DNA of 64,000 nucleotides from a virus: positions 70,338-134,337 of the IMG/VR virus record IMGVR_UViG_3300032893_000006, one strand, 5' to 3'. The notes under the pieces were generated by a model. That model did no database searches. It had not been told where the DNA came from and worked only from the letters and a program-made list of their open reading frames with translations. Below are positions 38,879-55,820 of this stretch, piece by piece; the first letter of the stretch is position 1, and every line of letters begins with the position of its first letter. The position numbers were made by a program, and so were the translations under genes.

Positions 38879-40119
38879 TTCGCCTCCAAGTCCTTCGCCG
38901 CACCGCGAAACCATGCCTCCCATCGCGGCCATAGGTTTCTCCAATCGAGATGCTCCGGCCTGTCTGCACGACTGCCGACAACACGTGCCACGGCGTCAGC
39001 GAAATCCTGCGCTCGATAGACTGGACGTTTCTGTGAGTACGCGCCTTCGTAGCGGAAAGCATAGGGCTCAACGAGCATGGAAGGTTGCATGTGTTCTGGC
39101 GCGCCGCCATAGTTGCCATGTACACACGGCGTGCCACAAAACAACGATTCAAAGATCGGAAAACCGAATCCCTCGGGACCGATGCCGAGCGTGACGTCGC
39201 AAGCAGAGTACGCCTCCGCCATGGCGTCATCTGGGAGATATCCGGTGGTCACCATTGTGTGCTCACCCCGCAGGGCGTAATCGACGAGGAGTGTATCGAT
39301 ATCCCAGTTTCGATTGATGGTGTCGGTGTGAATCCAGAGCCGGACTTTCATTGCTTTAGAAAGGATCGCAACCGTCTCGATGCCGAGAGCCCAGTCCTTT
39401 CGCGATTGGTTTGTTGCGACGATTCCTATTAAGACTTCATCTGGCTTGATCGAGCGATACTTATATTCATCCGACTTCACCTTGACTAAAGTGGGAAACA
39501 CAGAGCGAATCAGTGCTCGGTTGGGAGACCGCGAAAACACTCCCCCGTCGATCCCATGAGGAAGCTGGTCGAGATTCCGAAGTTCGGACTCTGGCTGACT
39601 TATCGTGCGTTCGATGATGTTGCGGCCCCACTCGCTGTAGGCGAGTATGCGATCAAATCCCCGCAACGTCTTCATGATCGGAAAAGTCAGGAGGTCATTC
39701 GGGCCTGATGCATCGAGTGGGCAGTAAATCCATTTCTCGAAAGGAGCGTTTTCGAGCCATTGCCTCAGGGGAAAGTATTTCTCCTCCTTCAACTGAGGGG
39801 AGCCATCAGGAACGGCGATCCATGACAGACGGCTTGGGTCCCAGATGCAGAGTACGATTCCTCGTTCGTCTCCAGCGAAGTTATGCCACGCTTCCGGAAG
39901 AGTCGGACAAACAAAATCATCGACGCCCTCTGCCGTGATTTGTGGAAAGCCTAGCCTGCAATCCATTGGTGCGCCATAACCGAAGGTCGCTATCCTGAAA
40001 ACATCGTTGAGTCTTCGATGAATACCGAAGGCTAAGTCTCTGGCGATTCTCCCGAGACCGGTCGGACCGGATACAGCATCTGAAATTATGAGCAGGGGGA
40101 TTCTCTTATTTGCGGCCAT
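38875..40119 (-). CDS. GT-B (GT4-like) glycosyltransferase
   Basis: SGPTGLGR, NQSRK, EGFGFPIFESLFCGTP. Confidence 0.88.
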   Translation of the reverse strand: MAANKRIPLLIISDAVSGPTGLGRIARDLAFGIHRRLNDVFRIATFGYGAPMDCRLGFPQITAEGVDDFVCPTLPEAWHNFAGDERGIVLCIWDPSRLSWIAVPDGSPQLKEEKYFPLRQWLENAPFEKWIYCPLDASGPNDLLTFPIMKTLRGFDRILAYSEWGRNIIERTISQPESELRNLDQLPHGIDGGVFSRSPNRALIRSVFPTLVKVKSDEYKYRSIKPDEVLIGIVATNQSRKDWALGIETVAILSKAMKVRLWIHTDTINRNWDIDTLLVDYALRGEHTMVTTGYLPDDAMAEAYSACDVTLGIGPEGFGFPIFESLFCGTPCVHGNYGGAPEHMQPSMLVEPYAFRYEGAYSQKRPVYRAQDFADAVARVVGSRADRPEHLDWRNLWPRWEAWFRGAAKDLEAK

Positions 40120-40162
40120 GCGATCAACGATAGCGCAGAGGATCAGACTATGCAAAGAAAAA

Positions 40163-40531
40163 TTACAACTCTTCGATTCGAATCCCGTGGATAAGGTACA
40201 TCATCTTTTTTTTGATTTTGTACACCGCGTTTTTCTTGTACCCTTTGGCATCGCACACACGGAGCCTGCCGTCTTCAAAAAATGTGAAGTCTGCCACATA
40301 GGAAATTGCGCGTACATCATCACGCCCGGGCACCAATTCGAAGGGCACCTGTTCCCTGAGGTTTGTGATTTTCCCCGCCTCGGCGAGCGCCCATAGGTTG
40401 GCCGCTACCTTTGCTTCGTGGCCGGAAGCGTATCTACCCGTACGCTCGTTGCCGTATTTCGACGGCTTTTTCACGTCGAGCCCAAAGTATTTCGACCATG
40501 CAGCGCGTTCCTGCTTCGTCTCTTTTCGCAT
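40163..40531 (-). CDS. DUF1064 family endonuclease
   Basis: SKYGN...EQVPFEL...YVADFTF...DAKG. Confidence 0.85.
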   Translation of the reverse strand: MRKETKQERAAWSKYFGLDVKKPSKYGNERTGRYASGHEAKVAANLWALAEAGKITNLREQVPFELVPGRDDVRAISYVADFTFFEDGRLRVCDAKGYKKNAVYKIKKKMMYLIHGIRIEEL

Positions 40532-40550
40532 CCTGTCCTATACTATCGCC

Positions 40551-40790
40551 ATGATCGAGATGATGAAGGACGACTTTATTGCGCCGGAGCACATTGCTCG
40601 CGTGAAAAAGATCGACGACGACACCTGCAACGTGTGGCTTGTCGGTCAGAGCGCTCTTGAACCGCACGTCGTGAACTGCAGCGCCAGAGATTTCGCCAAT
40701 GCAGTAAATGACGAGCTTAAATTGCCCCGGTGCGAAGAAGGGGATCAATCGGTCTCCGGCGACGAAAACTCAGATGAAGAAAGTTCTTGA
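40551..40790 (+). CDS. Small acidic hypothetical protein
   Basis: 79-aa ORF; its stop codon overlaps the -35 of the tRNA cluster 1 promoter. Confidence 0.45.
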   Translation: MIEMMKDDFIAPEHIARVKKIDDDTCNVWLVGQSALEPHVVNCSARDFANAVNDELKLPRCEEGDQSVSGDENSDEESS

Positions 40791-40815
40791 CAGGTATTTG
40801 CGACCGTGAGAGCAT
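40787..40815 (+). promoter_or_regulatory. Sigma70-type promoter of tRNA cluster 1
   Basis: TTGACA-N17-GAGCAT (weak -10). Confidence 0.55.
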
Positions 40816-40825
40816 GAAAAACGTT

Positions 40826-40906
40826 ATGAAGCTTTGCTTGTCCAGTTCGCGACTCTATTCCTCATTACTGAGGATGGGCTCGCCTTTTCTGGATCGCGGG
40901 ATATAA
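40826..40906 (+). CDS. Attenuator leader peptide 1 (MKLCLSSSRLYSSLLRMGSPFLDRGI; alternative start 40814)
   Basis: Codons CTT TGC TTG TCC AGT TCG CGA CTC TAT TCC TCA TTA CTG match the downstream Leu/Cys/Ser/Tyr tRNAs. Confidence 0.85.
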   Translation: MKLCLSSSRLYSSLLRMGSPFLDRGI

Positions 40907-40929
40907 GCTTCAGCGAATTTCAGAAAGAT

Positions 40930-40967
40930 GAGCCCTCAGACGCCAAGCGACTGGGGGCTTTTAGTTT
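40930..40967 (+). terminator. Attenuator terminator 1
   Basis: AGCCCTCAG/CTGGGGGCT stem plus T-rich tail; 5' arm also complementary to CTGAG-gat-GGGCTC at 40868..40881. Confidence 0.8.
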
Positions 40968-41050
40968 GCGGGATTGGCGGAATTGGAAGACGCAGTGGAC
41001 TTAAAATCCATCGGGCAACCGTAGGGGTTCAAGTCCCCTATCCCGCACCA
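40968..41050 (+). tRNA. trnL: tRNA-Leu(TAA)
   Basis: Cloverleaf; loop CTTAAAA; variable arm; encoded CCA. Confidence 0.95.
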
Positions 41051-41051
41051 T

Positions 41052-41127
41052 GTACCGGTACCCAAGTGGCTAAGGGAGCGGTCCGCAAAACCGTTATTCG
41101 CGAGTTCGATTCTCGCCCGGTACTCCA
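41052..41127 (+). tRNA. trnC: tRNA-Cys(GCA), C33
   Basis: Loop CCGCAAA; U73; CCA. Confidence 0.92.
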
Positions 41128-41138
41128 AGATTAGTTTT

Positions 41139-41221
41139 GCCCGGATGGTGGAATTGGCAGACACACTATCTTGAGGGGGTAGCGCGCAAGCGTGCCGGTT
41201 CAAGTCCGGCTCCGGGCACCA
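41139..41221 (+). tRNA. trnL: tRNA-Leu(GAG)
   Basis: Loop TTGAGGG; CCA. Confidence 0.95.
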
Positions 41222-41226
41222 AAGTT

Positions 41227-41326
41227 GTACGGAAGTGGCGAAACTGGCAGACGCGCACGCGTGTGCTCTGCGGTGTGCTAGGCACACTTAAAGAGCGTGA
41301 AGGTTCGAGTCCTTCCTTCTGTACAG
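41227..41326 (+). ncRNA. Leu-type tRNA-like RNA with aberrant anticodon region
   Basis: Acceptor ACGGAAG/CTTCTGT, Leu-like D arm, intact T arm; no 7-nt anticodon loop; no CCA. Confidence 0.7.
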
Positions 41327-41332
41327 CAATGT

Positions 41333-41415
<83 letters not shown>

Positions 41416-41432
41416 AGTTGAAGTTGAGTAGT

Positions 41433-41517
41433 GGCTCCGTGGCGGAATTGGAAGACGCGTTGGCCTTAGGCACCAATGCCCACGGGCGTAAGGGTTCGAG
41501 TCCCTTCGGGGCCACCA
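41433..41517 (+). tRNA. trnL: tRNA-Leu(TAG)
   Basis: Loop CTTAGGC; CCA. Confidence 0.92.
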
Positions 41518-41558
41518 AAGTTTGAATAAAAATTATGCGTAATCAGCATGATTTTTAT

Positions 41559-41641
41559 GCCGTCGTGGTGGAATTGGAATACACAGCGCACTCAAAACGC
41601 GCCGCGAAAGCATAGGGGTTCGAGCCCCCTCGACGGCACCA
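41559..41641 (+). tRNA. trnL: tRNA-Leu(CAA)
   Basis: Loop CTCAAAA; CCA. Confidence 0.93.
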
Positions 41642-41644
41642 AGT

Positions 41645-41734
41645 TCTGGTACTTGCCATGTGGCGAAAGCGACGAGAGTCAGAACAATGGCAAACGTGTT
41701 TCACGGAGCAACATCGACCTTGCGGGTTCAAGTC
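41645..41734 (+). ncRNA. tRNA-like RNA with about 16-bp terminal stem
   Basis: TCTGGTACTTGCCATG/CATGGTGAGTACCAGA; T arm GCGGG-TTCAAGT-CCCGT; no assignable anticodon. Confidence 0.6.
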
Positions 41735-41761
41735 CCGTCATGGTGAGTACCAGAGAGTTTT

Positions 41762-41849
41762 GGAGACGTAGGAAAATGGTTAATCCAGCAGGTTGCTAAC
41801 CTGCCAAAGCCTTCGGGCTGTGCGCGTTCGAGTCGCGCCGTCTCCTCCA
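41762..41849 (+). tRNA. trnS: tRNA-Ser(GCT), U73
   Basis: Loop TTGCTAA; long variable arm; CCA. Confidence 0.93.
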
Positions 41850-41887
41850 GTTTGGGCATAAGAATGGCAATCTTATGCCATAAGTTT

Positions 41888-41975
41888 GGAAGGGTGAGCG
41901 GAATGGTATCGCCCCGCATTGGAAATGCGGCTCACGTGAAAGCGTGTGCGGGTTCGAATCCTGCCCCTTCCGCCA
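41888..41975 (+). tRNA. trnS: tRNA-Ser(GGA)
   Basis: Loop TTGGAAA; CCA. Confidence 0.93.
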
Positions 41976-41993
41976 GTTTGATAGAGTCAAGTA

Positions 41994-42197
41994 ATGGCTG
42001 AAGACATAATCACTTTCTCTTCGGAGCAAGACAGCGATGGCAAGTGGTCGCTGGTTTATCGCGACAAGTACAAGACGTTCAAATACGCGACGCGATACGC
42101 AACTGAGAAAGAAGCTGAGGAAGCAATGCCAGAAGTTTGGGCAACGGTGCTGTCACTGATTGAAGAGGTCGGCGGCAGAATCGTTCAGGACTCGTAG
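41994..42197 (+). CDS. Small acidic hypothetical protein
   Basis: 67-aa ORF fitting exactly between two tRNAs. Confidence 0.55.
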   Translation: MAEDIITFSSEQDSDGKWSLVYRDKYKTFKYATRYATEKEAEEAMPEVWATVLSLIEEVGGRIVQDS

Positions 42198-42209
42198 AGT
42201 CCAGAGTTT

Positions 42210-42299
42210 GGATAGGTGGCAGAGTCTGCTTTATTGCACACGCCTCGAAAGCGTACGTGCCTTCGGGCACCGTGGGTTGAAATCCCACCCTATCCGCCA
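42210..42299 (+). tRNA. trnS: tRNA-Ser(CGA)
   Basis: Loop CTCGAAA; T loop TTGAAAT variant; CCA. Confidence 0.88.
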
Positions 42300-42303
42300 G
42301 TTC

Positions 42304-42391
42304 GGAGAGATGGCCGAGTGGTTTAAGGCACCGGTCTTGAAAACCGACGAACCGAAAGGTTCCGTGAGTTCGAATCTCACTCTCTCCGCCA
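42304..42391 (+). tRNA. trnS: tRNA-Ser(TGA)
   Basis: Loop CTTGAAA; CCA. Confidence 0.96.
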
Positions 42392-42397
42392 AATTGT

Positions 42398-42486
42398 GCA
42401 GGCGAGTCAGATACGGTTGGCTGTGCCGGTCCGTAAAACCGGATCACTTAGTGACGTTGGGGGTTCGAATCCCTCCGCCTGCACCA
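42398..42486 (+). tRNA. trnY: tRNA-Tyr(GTA), C33
   Basis: Loop CCGTAAA; variable arm; CCA. Confidence 0.9.
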
Positions 42487-42906
42487 TTAAATTTCTGTGT
42501 TGTACCAGCGGATCAGCTTCTTAAATAGACTTAGCCTGATAATCATCGAGCAGTCTGTGTTCTTGCGCCACGGACGAAGAAGCATCATAGTAGGCATTTT
42601 CTTGTAGAAAGATTTTCCACGTTTTCTCGATCCGACATACCCCACAATTTCAACTGCCCACGATCCAAGCAGACGGCAAAAACAGGTGCTATCCGGAGTC
42701 AGAGTTGATACATCAAATGTGTCAACAAACGCTGCAGCTTTGCGGAAATCCTTGATCGGCATCAGGACATCTGCACGGCACAATCCGTTGGCTAAAAGAA
42801 ACCACATCCTCTCACCGTCAGCAGTCACGCGAGCCTCAAGTTCCGGGGTTTCGAATACCGCATACGCAACGTCCCAGTTGAACCCAGTTAAGTCACGAGG
42901 TTTCAT
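42487..42906 (-). CDS. Hypothetical protein
   Basis: MKPRDLTG start overlapping the end of the AAA gene. Confidence 0.5.
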   Translation of the reverse strand: MKPRDLTGFNWDVAYAVFETPELEARVTADGERMWFLLANGLCRADVLMPIKDFRKAAAFVDTFDVSTLTPDSTCFCRLLGSWAVEIVGYVGSRKRGKSFYKKMPTMMLLRPWRKNTDCSMIIRLSLFKKLIRWYNTEI

Positions 42907-44098
42907 ATTCCACCATTTCTTTTCCGAACAGCAGTTCCTGTGCCTCGGCAATCGTAGTCTGCTCCGGCAGCAGCGCACGGAATTCAGGATAATCCGGAAT
43001 AGTAAACATCTTCTGCGCCCGGGCGTGGAACTTTACAAGCTGCTCATCGTCTGCCCACGACAAGTGAAATTCGCGGTCAATGCGTCCCTTCCGTAGAAGC
43101 GCTGAATCAAGGCGACCCCGGTGATTGGTCGTCATGATAAGTACGCGGCCTTCCGTGGCGACGACACCATCGATCACGTTCAGAAGGTCAGAAGTAATGA
43201 TCCCTTTCGGGGCATCTTTGTCTTCCTGACGCTGGCGTGCAGCCGGAACGCAGTCGACGTCCTCGATCAGCAGAATTGCTCGACTGGTGACGGAATTAAA
43301 AAGACGCTGCAACTCTTCAGGGCGCTCGACCGAAGAGAGATTCAGAAAATAGATTGGTATCTCCAGCACCGTGGCCAGAGCTTGGACGAATGAAGATTTG
43401 CCGGTTCCCGGGGGGCCATGCAGGAGATAGCCGCGCCGCCACGGAATTCCAAGCGAGCGATACTGGTCCCGACTCCTCATAAACTTTTGCGCGTCTGTAA
43501 GCATTGTCTCTGACGTCGATGGCGGTAGATAGATTGTGTCGAGGGGCCGGGGAGAGATGTCGCGGCTGCTCCACCATCCGCCTTCGTTGTAATAGAGGAT
43601 AAGCCGTTTTTCGAGACCACCATAGAACTCATTTTTTGCTTCGTCAAGAAGCTCGGTGATGATCGCGCGATCCAGCGTGCCCCAGATTGATATCCTGATC
43701 GTGCGCCGTGGACGAATAAGCGTGGCAGCGCCGGGGTTGTCTGTACCCTCTTTCAATGAACTGAAGATCAACAAGTAGCGCTTACGGAAACGCAGATAGT
43801 AGGTGCCGTAGTGGGGAACCATCTGGTACACAACCGACTCGCGTTCAATTTGACGTCGCAGCAAGAGGTCGGTGATTTTCTTTGCACGAATGCGCTTTTC
43901 CGCCCATAGGCTCAGCCATGTGTAGGGGTCTTCTGTTTCTGCTTCTTCAATGGTTAAAGCTACATAGAATTTTCGAACCACAAACCCGAACGTGTGGTTG
44001 TAAACGCCATGCCAAAAATTCTTGATCCATCCGAGAGCAGCGCCGCCGACCAATAAAAGCCAAGGCGGAAACGCCTGAGAAAGAAATTGCCAATTCAT
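42893..44098 (-). CDS. BCS1-like AAA+ ATPase
   Basis: N-terminal TM segment; IPWRRGYLLHGPPGTGKSS Walker A; LLIEDVD Walker B; LNVIDGV; DSALLRKGRID. Confidence 0.9.
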   Translation of the reverse strand: MNWQFLSQAFPPWLLLVGGAALGWIKNFWHGVYNHTFGFVVRKFYVALTIEEAETEDPYTWLSLWAEKRIRAKKITDLLLRRQIERESVVYQMVPHYGTYYLRFRKRYLLIFSSLKEGTDNPGAATLIRPRRTIRISIWGTLDRAIITELLDEAKNEFYGGLEKRLILYYNEGGWWSSRDISPRPLDTIYLPPSTSETMLTDAQKFMRSRDQYRSLGIPWRRGYLLHGPPGTGKSSFVQALATVLEIPIYFLNLSSVERPEELQRLFNSVTSRAILLIEDVDCVPAARQRQEDKDAPKGIITSDLLNVIDGVVATEGRVLIMTTNHRGRLDSALLRKGRIDREFHLSWADDEQLVKFHARAQKMFTIPDYPEFRALLPEQTTIAEAQELLFGKEMVEYETS

Positions 44099-44279
44099 AA
44101 CGGTGAGTGTATCTAAAAAGCCGATAGTCAGCTAGAAATATTCACACCGCTGCTGCCGCAGGCTGTGCTAGAGTGCCTGCATGTGGCACCACCACTATCG
44201 CCGCCTAAGTTTTATCAAGATCGGCTTCGTGCGCCGCGTCCACCCCATCCATCACCACCACATTGAAGGAGAAGAAATC

Positions 44280-44600
44280 ATGGCATTCGCCCAAGGTCCA
44301 ATCACCCTACAGGTCGGACAGTCTGCTGAAGCGGAACTGCTCGGCTTCGATCAAAATGGAAATCCGATGCCCTTGCCTGCAGGCGCTACGGTGTCCTACA
44401 GCATCGACGCGCCATCCGTCGCAACGTCGACACCAAACTCAGACGGCCAGACCGATGAGGTTGCTGCCGTTAGTGCTGGCACGGCAAACCTGACCGCGAG
44501 CGTGACCGGACCGAACGGTGTTCTTTCCGATACCGAGACGGTTACTGTGACGGTTCCTCAGGTTCTTACGAGCGTGAAGCTAGCGTTCCAAGCGAACTAA
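44280..44600 (+). CDS. Single Ig-like (Big_2-type) domain protein
   Basis: GAAGGAG RBS; LQVGQS...YSIDAPSVAT...AVSAGTANLTASV. Confidence 0.75.
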   Translation: MAFAQGPITLQVGQSAEAELLGFDQNGNPMPLPAGATVSYSIDAPSVATSTPNSDGQTDEVAAVSAGTANLTASVTGPNGVLSDTETVTVTVPQVLTSVKLAFQAN

Positions 44601-44627
44601 CCAAGCACTTCAGTAAGCAGATTGAGT

Positions 44628-44658
44628 AAAGGGCCGACTTCTAAGAGTCGGCCCTTTT
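44628..44658 (+). terminator. Rho-independent terminator
   Basis: AAAGGGCCGACT/AGTCGGCCCTTTT. Confidence 0.85.
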
Positions 44659-44697
44659 GCGTGGCGAGAAAATAAGAACAGTGCTAAAATTGCGAGC

Positions 44698-44919
44698 ATG
44701 AAAATGAGCCTAAAGGTCACGATTCCAGACGATCTCGCCAAAGAGTTTTTACAGATGATTCGCGACTTCGATACCAAGCACGATCCGAATCATGAGGACA
44801 AGGTCACCTTGCAGGTGTTTGCTGAAGGTGGCCTGACGGTCGAGGAGATGAGCGAGATTCTGGACTCCATGACGCCCAAGATGGAACACAAGTGTGTTGT
44901 AAGAGCGGACGCCGAATAA
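44698..44919 (+). CDS. Small hypothetical protein
   Basis: 73-aa ORF. Confidence 0.5.
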   Translation: MKMSLKVTIPDDLAKEFLQMIRDFDTKHDPNHEDKVTLQVFAEGGLTVEEMSEILDSMTPKMEHKCVVRADAE

Positions 44920-44920
44920 T

Positions 44921-44949
44921 TTGCACGCGCGTAGTTTCCGTGGTACATT
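44921..44949 (+). promoter_or_regulatory. Sigma70-type promoter directly upstream of tRNA-fMet
   Basis: TTGCAC-N17-TACATT; no leader ORF or terminator before the tRNA. Confidence 0.7.
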
Positions 44950-44955
44950 ATGGAA

Positions 44956-45034
44956 CGCGGGGTAGAGCAGTCTGGTTGTGCTCGCTTGGCTCATAACCAA
45001 GAGGTCGATGGTTCAAATCCATCTCCCGCAACCA
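44956..45034 (+). tRNA. trnfM: Initiator-type tRNA-Met(CAT)
   Basis: C1:A72 mismatch; loop CTCATAA; only two of the three G-C anticodon-stem pairs. Confidence 0.88.
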
Positions 45035-45041
45035 TTTTCAC

Positions 45042-45117
45042 GCAACCGTAGCATAGCGGCCAGTGCACTTGATTGTCGATCAAGCTTACGCCGGTTCGAA
45101 TCCGGTCGGTTGCGCCA
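45042..45117 (+). tRNA. trnD: tRNA-Asp(GTC)
   Basis: Loop TTGTCGA; G73; CCA. Confidence 0.92.
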
Positions 45118-45138
45118 TAGTTTTCCGGGGAATGATGA

Positions 45139-45333
45139 ATGGGTTGGGCGAATGGCGATAGAGAGATAGTCGTAGAAGGTCGCATTTGTCTCAGTAAGAC
45201 AAAGAGTGTCTTCTACGATCTCGATAAGGTCTTCAACCGCATAGTCCACACGGAAAAAAGAATTGCGTTGCTGAAATACACGCATGAGATCGGCAAGCTG
45301 CTCGACAGGATCGAGCAGGACTTGTACCGCTAA
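45139..45333 (+). CDS. Small hypothetical protein
   Basis: 64-aa ORF. Confidence 0.4.
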   Translation: MGWANGDREIVVEGRICLSKTKSVFYDLDKVFNRIVHTEKRIALLKYTHEIGKLLDRIEQDLYR

Positions 45334-45381
45334 ACTTCAACCGAATCGAGGTTACCCATGAAAACTCTCTAGGAAAGTGAG

Positions 45382-45579
45382 GTGAGAATCTTCATGGGTA
45401 ACGCTCATGCGTGGCGGCACCGGAGCGGACGTGGTAATCCTTGTCCGACCGGATGTCTCTATTGCAAGATGCGCCCTAAGAGTGGCGAGCCGGGGTCTCG
45501 GCAGAAGCACTACAGCAACAAGACCAGCCGTGGCCGTCATTGTCCGAGGGGCAGGAACGCAAACAAGAAAAAGAAGTGA
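45382..45579 (+). CDS. Small Arg/Lys-rich protein
   Basis: GAGGTG RBS; CPTGCLYC. Confidence 0.4.
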   Translation: MRIFMGNAHAWRHRSGRGNPCPTGCLYCKMRPKSGEPGSRQKHYSNKTSRGRHCPRGRNANKKKK

Positions 45580-45945
45580 TTGAGTTACGCACGTCAACAC
45601 TGAGGTGAAGGGATTTCGGACGCGGGTTCGAATCCCGCCGAGTCCACCAAGAAGCACACAAGAGGTACGGAGCCAGATACTCTAAAGCCCGTGGGCAATG
45701 TCCTAACCGGACCGGAGTCGCAACGCTGGCCGAGGAGTGCTACCGTGTGTGTTTCTTTGTGGGCTCGTCAAGGTTTCGACGGGATCAATGATCCTCAGCT
45801 TCGTGCCGGAGTAGTATGCCCACCGTAACGGGAATGCAACCAATAAGTGCTGAGGACAATGCACTGCCGATGGCTGCTTAATCACCAGCTATCCAAGGTT
45901 TGGCCACGTTCCTTGTTAAGCAATACGTGGCGATTGATCCGGGGG
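45580..45945 (+). ncRNA. ssrA: Circularly permuted (two-piece) tmRNA; tag AEDNALPMAA; outer ends approximate
   Basis: T arm plus CGAGTCC-A-CCA (ends 45649) precedes the 5' strand GGGCTCG (45761) with G3:U70; tag ORF 45849..45881 after AATAAGT. Confidence 0.92.
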
Positions 45946-45946
45946 A

Positions 45947-46315
45947 ATGATGCCACTACGTTCAAACGATCTCATCAAGGCGTTCACTGAGAACGACAAG
46001 TTTGTCGTCGACTCGAACGGCGTGAAGTCCCTTGAGCTTGACGGCAAGAAGTATCCCTGCACCGGCTACATCGGTCAGGTGAAGTCAGGCTACATGTGTC
46101 AGAATGACTTTCAGCACGAGGTCGGCGATGCTCCAGCGACCGGCCCGGTCTGCGACTCTGTTGAGAGCTTGGTTGCAAGCCATCCATGTGTGAAAGAATG
46201 TGGGTGGGTTCGAGTCTTGCTGATTGCAGTGGAGCATGGCGATGCCAGAGAATCGGAAGAGGAAACAAAACAAGAAGAAAATCAAACGTCGGCGGGAAAT
46301 TCAATCACAAGTTGA
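45947..46315 (+). CDS. Hypothetical protein
   Basis: 122-aa ORF with GGGGG RBS. Confidence 0.5.
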   Translation: MMPLRSNDLIKAFTENDKFVVDSNGVKSLELDGKKYPCTGYIGQVKSGYMCQNDFQHEVGDAPATGPVCDSVESLVASHPCVKECGWVRVLLIAVEHGDARESEEETKQEENQTSAGNSITS

Positions 46316-46487
46316 TCGCTGCCGCAAAATTTTGTTGGAATCTGCGTTTCCGCGTCGCACGGTCCAGAAGACATGGGTTCCGACGACACCTCCTGCTTGG
46401 GCTACGGTTGATCCCCTTACTGGCAAGGTGATCTCCCTATCGACCTTTAATGCAGGTTCTGGGTATACTAATAAAGCTGGATTCGTG

Positions 46488-46562
46488 GCGTCGCCGTCTA
46501 GTGGTATGGACCCCTGATTCTCAATCAGGTGACCGTGGGTTCGATCCCCACCGGGAGTACCA
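46488..46562 (+). pseudogene. tRNA-Glu(CTC) with unpaired acceptor stem
   Basis: D, anticodon (TTCTCAA) and T arms and CCA intact; 5' strand does not pair with CGGGAGT. Confidence 0.7.
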
Positions 46563-48179: not shown

Positions 48180-48249
48180 ATAGTAGGCTAAATCTTGGAT
48201 TTGTCAAGAAAAATAGCCATTGACAAACTGCGGCCATCCGGGGTACTGT
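48180..48249. promoter_or_regulatory. Back-to-back divergent sigma70-type promoters
   Basis: Minus: TTGACA(48207)-N16-TACTAT; plus: TTGACA(48220)-N18-TACTGT. Confidence 0.7.
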
Positions 48250-48258
48250 GGAAAAGTC

Positions 48259-48333
48259 ATGAGATTGAACCGAGCCAATTCGAATCATCCAGCGCAAACG
48301 GTGGCAACACCGTTTCAGGGTGGTCGTATGTAG
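48259..48333 (+). CDS. Attenuator leader peptide 2 (MRLNRANSNHPAQTVATPFQGGRM)
   Basis: Codons AAC AAT CAT CCA GCG CAA ACG GCA ACA CCG TTT CAG GGT CGT match cluster 2 anticodons. Confidence 0.88.
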   Translation: MRLNRANSNHPAQTVATPFQGGRM

Positions 48334-48376
48334 GCTCGGCCTATTCATCGCAGCTTCGAGAAGCACGATGGGGAAG

Positions 48377-48411
48377 AAGGTCCGAGCCGAATGGTTCGGA
48401 CCTTTTGTTTT
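48377..48411 (+). terminator. Attenuator terminator 2
   Basis: AAGGTCCGAGCC/GGTTCGGACCTT plus TTGTTTT; 5' arm complementary to GGCTCGGCCT at 48333..48342. Confidence 0.85.
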
Positions 48412-48421
48412 GCGAGTTTAT

Positions 48422-55638: not shown

Positions 55639-55667
55639 TTGCAAAGAGTCGGAAAGTGGTGTAACGT
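55639..55667 (+). promoter_or_regulatory. Sigma70-type promoter of tRNA cluster 3
   Basis: TTGCAA-N17-TAACGT. Confidence 0.7.
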
Positions 55668-55677
55668 GGTTCCTGTT

Positions 55678-55746
55678 ATGACGCAGACCTTCAAACACGG
55701 GATAACCAGAATGACCAAGCGGGTCATTTGGGGAATCGTGTGCTAG
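55678..55746 (+). CDS. Attenuator leader peptide 3 (MTQTFKHGITRMTKRVIWGIVC)
   Basis: Codons ACC AAA GGG ATA AGA ATG AAG CGG ATT TGG GGA ATC GTG match cluster 3 anticodons. Confidence 0.88.
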   Translation: MTQTFKHGITRMTKRVIWGIVC

Positions 55747-55777
55747 GGGTCTGAAAGTCCATTTTCTGGATTTCCAT

Positions 55778-55806
55778 GACCCCGGCTCAGGCCGGGGTTT
55801 TCATTT
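55778..55806 (+). terminator. Attenuator terminator 3
   Basis: GACCCCGGC/GCCGGGGTT plus TTCATTT; GACCCC also complementary to GGGGTC at 55746..55751. Confidence 0.82.
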
Positions 55807-55820
55807 GCTGTTTGACATAC

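Follow-up and report, generated by a model that had tools for sequence, protein, structure and literature searches.

A short open reading frame (ORF) followed by a terminator, located directly before a block of tRNA genes in a virus genome, probably functions as a ribosome-mediated (leader-peptide) transcription attenuator, which would gate the tRNA block by sensing tRNA supply. The in silico basis of this reading consists of the anatomy of the leader, its codon specificity, its conservation and the covariation of its paired strands; what we infer is where transcription starts, that the ORF is translated and that the switch operates. The window, i.e. the whole stretch of 64,000 nucleotides that was analysed, is the right-hand 64 kb of a virus record of 134,337 bp. 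In the following, W designates the genome to which the window belongs, units 1 to 3 are each composed of a leader and the tRNA block behind it, and G001, G002 and G003 are relatives. In W, ARAGORN identified 40 tRNA genes and a permuted tmRNA, all of them on the plus strand between 40968 and 59196. Block 1 (40968-42486, plus strand; ARAGORN and Rfam) contains eleven tRNAs representing 11 isoacceptors (five Leu, one Cys, four Ser and one Tyr) as well as an odd tRNA-like gene of 96 nt. A glycosyltransferase gene, a gene for a DUF1064 protein and a 79-codon gene (40551-40790) lie upstream of leader 1, the last of these ending just before it, and the downstream neighbour on the opposite strand encodes a BCS1-like AAA ATPase.

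The odd gene within block 1 (41229-41324) was called by ARAGORN as a 96-nt 'tRNA-Ala(tgc)'. Its acceptor, D and T arms are Leu-like, its anticodon region is over-long and self-pairing, and its equivalent in G001 is an ordinary tRNA-Leu. It could represent a Leu tRNA that has decayed or acquired an insertion.

The elements of leader 1 follow each other closely on the plus strand. The promoter is sigma70-like, with a -35 hexamer TTGACA (40787-40792) that is identical in G001 and G002 at unchanged spacing, a 17-nt spacer and an extended -10 of the form TG-n-GAGCAT (40807-40815), in which the hexamer starts at 40810 and includes the AUG at 40814. The -10 is weak, hence the promoter is not listed by a simple consensus scan, and the block around it is identical in G001 and differs by one base in G002. 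Going by the spacing in the relatives, transcription is predicted to start at the G at 40823, 8 nt after the -10. The leader ORF (40826-40906) has 26 codons plus a stop, beginning with the ATG at 40826 and ending with TAA at 40904-40906. Its regulatory run (40832-40870) consists of 13 codons, 12 of which specify Leu, Cys, Ser or Tyr, the exception being CGA. The first-pass annotation of this DNA had described these 12 codons as readable by the block 1 tRNAs, and under standard wobble rules this is confirmed.

The RNA features proposed in that annotation could also be traced. Hairpin 1:2, with 6 bp and a 4-nt loop, is found where it had been placed (40859-40874) and has a folding energy of -7.3 kcal/mol (z -3.6). 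Strand 2, the antiterminator strand (40868-40882), is complementary to strand 3, the 5' arm of the terminator (40930-40939, located by folding). The proposed alternative pairing of these two strands is borne out by a duplex energy of -14.6 kcal/mol (RNAduplex); an equal or better pairing with strand 3 occurs in 0.9% of random 51-nt genomic windows (P 0.009). When 40866-40941 was folded with the upstream RNA omitted, 40868-40882 paired with 40929-40939, i.e. the 2:3 helix formed. The terminator, likewise present as claimed, is a hairpin at 40930-40959 (-20.8 kcal/mol, z -3.8). Its strand 4 (40951-40959) and the U-tract behind it (40960-40967) follow from folding and from the consensus structure of the three phage copies, and the U-tract directly abuts tRNA-Leu(UAA), the first base of which is 40968. 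The fold of the leader 1 region as a whole has -60.4 kcal/mol, with a z-score of -4.5 against shuffles. In a cmscan search of 40000-46500 against Rfam with E values of up to 1, which yielded only tRNA, tmRNA and chance hits, the leader region (40787-40967) had no match, and neither the Leu, Thr, His, Trp and Phe leader families nor the T-box were matched.

Two sister sites had been proposed along with leader 1, and inspection of the DNA showed that the remaining two tRNA blocks are preceded by leaders of the same layout. Unit 2 (48220-48421, plus strand) consists of a promoter, a 24-codon ORF (48259-48333) and a terminator before the Asn/Gln/Gly/Thr/His/Ala/Phe/Pro/Arg block, and has homologues in G002 and G003. 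Unit 3 (55639-55820, plus strand), with a promoter, a 22-codon ORF (55678-55746) and a terminator, precedes the Trp/Met/Lys/Arg/Val/Thr/Ile/Gly block; homologues of it exist in G001 and G002, and G003 retains a relic. Both units have a good -35, a weak -10 and, 9-10 nt further on, an ATG; the ORF comprises 22-24 codons, and the terminator is again followed by a U-tract.

Each leader is matched to the tRNAs behind it. When all six frames of the whole 134-kb genome were searched, the run at 40832-40870 was the only 13-codon window with at least 12 Leu, Cys, Ser or Tyr codons. The complete leader 1 ORF contains 14 cognate codons, which touch all 11 isoacceptors of block 1; for units 2 and 3 of W, the isoacceptors touched by their own leader are 13/14 and 10/10. 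Every leader codon was assigned to the block whose tRNAs read that codon, which gives a leader-by-block matrix of 14/5/4, 2/17/3 and 1/4/14 in W. The diagonal of this matrix, i.e. the own-block matches, comprises 45 of 69 codons. If the 69 codons are dealt out at random among the leaders, the mean is 21.2 (sd 3.8), and not one of 200,000 such shuffles reached 45. Considered singly and over the whole ORF, the leaders of units 1, 2 and 3 have empirical P values of 0.003, 0.0003 and 0.0004, obtained from random genomic segments of equal length (152 nt for leader 1) in which ORF and frame could be freely chosen. The amino acids whose tRNAs are split between blocks 2 and 3 (Thr, Gly and Arg) allow a finer distinction: the isoacceptor of the own block is the one called for in 13 of 15 codons (P 0.0037), and both exceptions are codon 2 of a leader. 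Due to the marked differences in base composition among the runs, a composition artefact cannot explain all three of them. The codon match is beyond chance.

Three relatives with comparable loci were found. G001 is a 105-kb IMG/VR contig whose DUF1064 protein and glycosyltransferase are 63% and 66% identical to those of W. The 19-nt core of unit 3 led to the other two, namely G002, an IMG/VR contig of 138.5 kb, and G003, a 246-kb contig of an Acidobacteriota MAG. The order of the tRNA blocks is common to these three and W. Ten leaders were thus available for comparison (units 1-3 of W, five from G001 and G002, and two from G003); no unit 2 was found in G001 on inspection. The sample covers four genomes only, and the P values given for the relatives are not independent, because the members of each of the three unit families are homologous.

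Further searches were carried out with several parts of the locus. INPHARED cultured phages contained no relative (the DNA matched in tRNA-Leu only, and neither the glycosyltransferase protein nor unit 3 had a match), and searches for related loci with the 79-aa neighbour and with the BCS1-like ATPase returned nothing. A further DUF1064 relative, P0002, is 76% identical, and the viral and metagenome contigs with DUF1064 matches, G001 excepted, were without a tRNA cluster or leader. A profile search with the glycosyltransferase added one contig, which was without tRNAs. The promoter-pattern scan gave 19 loci, of which 18 were chance matches, and the same holds for seven of the eight genome-contig matches to the unit 3 core, the eighth being G003. 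A 20-nt unit 1 motif common to G001 and G003 was present in no further viral contig, and a BLAST search with unit 1 of G003 against 201 genomes of its order matched tRNA-Leu only.

Unit 1 is kept in all three relatives, with a promoter, homologous ORFs of 18-22 codons at the same place and a terminator that adjoins the first tRNA. The uninterrupted runs of cognate codons comprise 12, 14 and 13 codons in G001, G002 and G003, respectively. Each of them is the longest in the whole sequence searched, the next best having 8, 10 and 8 codons. In every genome, the best match of each leader is its own block. Several leader codons of G001 and G002 (AGY, UCY and CUC, as well as Arg codons in unit 3 of G002) are without a cognate phage tRNA according to ARAGORN and Rfam, and the match at the level of isoacceptors is therefore complete only in W. 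What is conserved in the leader peptides is their composition and not their sequence, since positions swap among Leu, Ser, Cys and Tyr. This bears on the idea that the product of the short ORF is itself functional, as a small hydrophobic peptide, with which it would agree that the frame is open in four genomes. The length varies from 18 to 26 codons, only the composition is retained, and the leaders of unit 2 cannot even be aligned between genomes, so that we regard such a peptide as extremely improbable.

The chromosomal copy in G003 differs from the phage copies in its tRNA content. The array (G003:C107:50001-90000) has 25 tRNAs with codon-matched leaders; its neighbours are pgi, a lipA-like (lipoyl-synthase-like) gene and infB, and on the other side three ORFs without Pfam hits. 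The island accounts for about 22 of the 49 tRNA hits of this genome, namely the lower-scoring ones, and has the appearance of a supplementary array within a bacterial chromosome. A mobile array and the remnant of a prophage are possible identities, and for the phages described here the island is a clue to a host among the Acidobacteriota. Block 1 of G003 is without tRNA-Cys and continues into tRNA-Asp and tRNA-Glu. The leader before it has zero Cys codons and includes Asp and Glu codons within the run; a single base change separates a Cys codon in G001 from a Tyr codon in leader 1 of G003. The Asp/Glu part of this co-variation is weak, as leaders 1 of W and G001 contain 1 and 2 Asp/Glu codons although their blocks have no such tRNA; those of G001 stand after the run. 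In unit 3 of G003 the leader has lost its promoter and U-tract. Blocks 2 and 3 were for this reason taken as one transcript, and they appear to be fused. In leader 2, which would then serve both, Lys, Ile and Val codons make up 8 of 27, versus 1 of 50 in W and G002 (P 0.0007). Across genomes, the codon content of the leaders thus tracks the tRNA content in part. The relic of the unit 3 leader (L109:18401-18516, minus strand) still has the conserved 18-nt core and a Trp codon in its ORF, and neither tRNA-Trp nor tRNA-Met comes after it.

The paired strands of the leaders are conserved as pairs. In the consensus fold of the three phage copies, two pairs of the unit 1 terminator helix are changed on both sides. 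A pairwise alignment read by eye shows that several pairs of the unit 3 stem have been replaced together in G001, and, by the same kind of reading, that W and G001 differ in both partners of the pairing between strand 2 and the terminator arm of unit 3, with the pairing kept. Hairpin 1:2 persists in G001 and in G002, where one of its pairs is compensated (alignment read by eye). An antiterminator-type strand is present near the end of the ORF in all ten leaders, with energies of -12 to -17.6 kcal/mol. The P values for strand 2 range from 0.001 to 0.11 in the eight phage leaders, which Fisher's method combines to 3e-8 for leaders that are not independent, and they are 0.016 and 0.005 in the two G003 leaders.

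The position of strand 2 relative to the stop codon determines whether a ribosome that terminates there can reach it. In the nine leaders other than leader 1 of W, strand 2 is located between 18 nt before and 13 nt after the stop codon; given the assumed footprint, a terminating ribosome would cover it in most of these, two being at the edge of the footprint. The ORF of leader 1 of W has an insertion of 18 nt compared to G001 and G002, and its strand 2 is found 22-36 nt upstream of the stop codon. Since this is outside the cover of the terminating ribosome, leader 1 of W needs the 1:2 hairpin.

As a proxy for the kinetics, we used a truncated model in which the folded RNA ends with strand 3 and a ribosome footprint of 29 nt is placed at each codon in turn. 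In nine of ten leaders, the 5' arm of the terminator was more paired with the ribosome in the run than with the ribosome at the last codons. The G003 copies were the cleanest, with arm sequestration going from 1.00 to 0.3-0.6, and the one exception was leader 1 of W, which was noisy and without a clean transition. When equilibrium folding was applied to all four strands of leader 1 of W, the terminator formed at any ribosome position (P of at least 0.69), and the same was true of unit 2 of W and unit 3 of G002. As equilibrium mostly favours the terminator, a switch, if there is one, has to be under kinetic control, like that of classical attenuators. The 1:2, 2:3, 3:4 switch of the first-pass annotation thus stands as far as its parts, their conservation and the codon match are concerned, all of which fit an attenuator, but equilibrium folding alone predicts no strong switch for this copy, which in these models has the least ideal geometry of the ten leaders.

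These folding results have to be weighed against two other readings. A stable terminator that is predicted to dominate at equilibrium would also be expected of a structured 5' leader that is constitutive and has a leaky terminator; it would either end the transcript of the 79-codon gene or affect the processing or stability of the pre-tRNA, and the codon match would be due to chance or a relic. The end of the 79-codon gene just upstream agrees with this, as does the G003 unit 3 relic, an ORF that persists without promoter or U-tract. Against it are the conserved promoter that separates the 79-codon gene from the terminator, the codon statistics, which speak against chance, and the covariation of strand 2 with strand 3; we hold it to be very unlikely. 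According to the second reading, the gate senses general translation capacity, i.e. the availability of ribosomes or of initiation, and the cognate codons are a secondary tuning. Its architecture would be identical to that of the attenuator, and as the untranslated truncated RNA already sequesters the terminator arm, any failure of translation would open the gate. A general sensor, however, would not need three disjoint codon sets, each matched to its block, in one genome, and this makes it improbable.

Attenuation presupposes that the ORF is translated, and the start of leader 1 had been left open between AUG 40814 and AUG 40826. The former is situated within the -10 hexamer and is replaced by ATC or ATT in the relatives, so that 40826 is retained as the start and 40814 is dropped. 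All five leaders of G001 and G002 have a GTG exactly 7 nt after the -10, and all three leaders of W (40826, 48259 and 55678) have G-T-Y-ATG, with the ATG 9-10 nt after the -10; the ATG starts of W, compared to the GTG of its relatives, look like a concerted start-codon change at three loci of one genome. Leader 1 of W has no Shine-Dalgarno sequence. The G003 leaders have GGAG or GAGGA 6-7 nt before the start. The geometry of the phage leaders recurs at the glycosyltransferase gene (40119-40155, minus strand), where a -35, a 17-nt spacer and a -10 are followed by an ATG 7 nt on, and it is the same in G002; the TTG listed as the start of this gene, 12 codons upstream, is probably wrong. Because the glycosyltransferase gene of W and G002 shares this geometry of -10 and start codon, the phages appear to use leaderless mRNAs. 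With its predicted start at G 40823, the mRNA of leader 1 would probably be near-leaderless as well, and translation of the ORF would depend on this predicted start about 3 nt before the AUG.

The promoters are also what a third reading builds on, namely factor-dependent processive antitermination of the lambda PR'-tR' type with Q. The terminator would then be a timing gate that is opened by a phage protein or RNA, and the short ORF would be irrelevant. A strong -35, a weak -10 and a terminator about 140 nt further on in three units are in keeping with such a gate, and the conserved block around the -10 could be the site of the factor. This reading leaves many observations unexplained: the block-specific codon match and its persistence despite changes of the peptide, the shift of the G003 leaders with tRNA content, the fixed spacing of the start codon together with the Shine-Dalgarno sequences of G003, and the antiterminator strands at the ends of the ORFs. 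We consider it unlikely as the sole mechanism, and antitermination by a factor could be layered on attenuation.

Attenuation by the leader peptide would proceed as follows. Transcription would start about 8 nt past the weak -10, with AUG 40826 about 3 nt from the 5' end of the mRNA, and a ribosome would occupy the 26-codon ORF while RNA polymerase proceeds to the terminator. With rapid decoding of the Leu, Cys, Ser and Tyr codons, the ribosome would reach the stop codon; strand 2 would then be sequestered in the 1:2 hairpin, or the ribosome would prevent it from contacting strand 3, so that the 3:4 helix forms and transcription stops at the U-tract, 1 nt before tRNA-Leu. A shortage of any one of these tRNAs, through depletion, cleavage or lack of charging, would make the ribosome stall early in the run and cover strand 1. 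Strand 2 could then pair with strand 3, which would block the terminator and let the polymerase enter the eleven tRNA genes. The tRNAs produced would relieve the stall, resulting in negative feedback, and units 2 and 3 would act likewise on the other two blocks.

The individual components of this mechanism are well known. Enterobacterial attenuators can be multivalent, and the group includes thrL (Thr and Ile), ilvL (Ile, Leu and Val), leuL, hisL, trpL and pheL. Leader 1 resembles them in its short ORF near the promoter, which contains a run of regulatory codons, in the mutually exclusive 1:2, 2:3 and 3:4 helices and the intrinsic terminator before the first gene, and in the proposed use of ribosome position as the read-out. 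However, the enterobacterial attenuators regulate biosynthetic enzymes and the phage unit would regulate tRNAs; the regulated genes being tRNAs, the sensed molecule would be the product itself. Leader 1 also differs from them in that four amino acids and 11 isoacceptors are represented in one run, in its probably leaderless mRNA and in matching no Rfam leader family. Closer in function are the pheM-pheST attenuator of E. coli and the His-codon leaders before hisS/hisZ paralogues in bacilli (PMC2965389). As is proposed for the phage unit, they control a component of decoding, here an aminoacyl-tRNA synthetase, and not amino-acid synthesis; unlike the phage unit, they respond to one amino acid only, and their product is a protein. 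T-box riboswitches also sense the state of a tRNA and toggle between terminator and antiterminator, but they bind one uncharged tRNA directly and do not need translation. Leader 1 has no T-box match, and a single RNA of this type could not bind 11 tRNAs. The lambda PR'-tR'/Q system has a similar layout of a promoter and, within about 150-200 nt, an intrinsic terminator gating a long unit, but read-through by Q depends on a protein loaded at the promoter, without a codon-matched ORF. In full-text searches of the literature and in PMC2965389, we found leader peptides before biosynthetic operons and synthetase genes, and none before tRNA genes. Leader-peptide attenuation of tRNA genes would thus be a known device with a new cargo, for which no publication was found.

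Why large phages have tRNAs is a matter of debate; it has been proposed that they match codon usage, stand in for host tRNAs that decay, or allow escape from immunity directed at tRNAs. To our knowledge, essentially nothing has been established about how phage tRNA genes are regulated. If leader 1 operates as proposed, the phage gauges at each codon how fast decoding proceeds and supplies tRNAs only on need, the hypotheses on phage tRNAs become directly testable, and classical attenuation is extended to a case in which the regulated product is the sensed molecule. It would also represent a compact natural 'tRNA-shortage reporter', and the chromosomal copy in G003 suggests that the device is not limited to viruses. 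More tentatively, each tRNA block in the phage lineage and in the Acidobacteriota array might be an autonomous homeostat, the leader being a checklist of every isoacceptor behind it. Any loss, be it due to tRNA-cleaving defence nucleases of the host, to decay of host tRNAs or to a mismatch in codon usage, would open that block alone and replace the missing tRNAs, and the module would move between chromosomes and phages and be re-tuned to its cargo. We think of this wider picture as possible but far from assured.

A few other features of the tRNA clusters deserve mention. After the unit 3 terminator of G001 (L074:1700-2000, minus strand), a 5' half of tRNA-Trp that extends to the anticodon loop precedes an ORF for an HNH-type endonuclease, behind which a complete tRNA-Trp is located; the arrangement suggests that an endonuclease gene has inserted at the tRNA. 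A similar ORF is located between leader 2 and the first tRNA in G002. In the same genome, a gene that resembles tRNA-Asn(GTT) and whose acceptor arms match lies just before tRNA-Gln (L088:9384-9458); it is not called by ARAGORN. Finally, the unit consisting of an initiator-like tRNA-Met, tRNA-Asp and the tmRNA in W has neither a leader ORF nor a terminator, as is also the case in G001. It is preceded by a conserved promoter-like sequence of its own (44900-44956) that ends about 6 nt 5' of the first base of the tRNA, and its transcript may start at or adjoining the mature 5' end.
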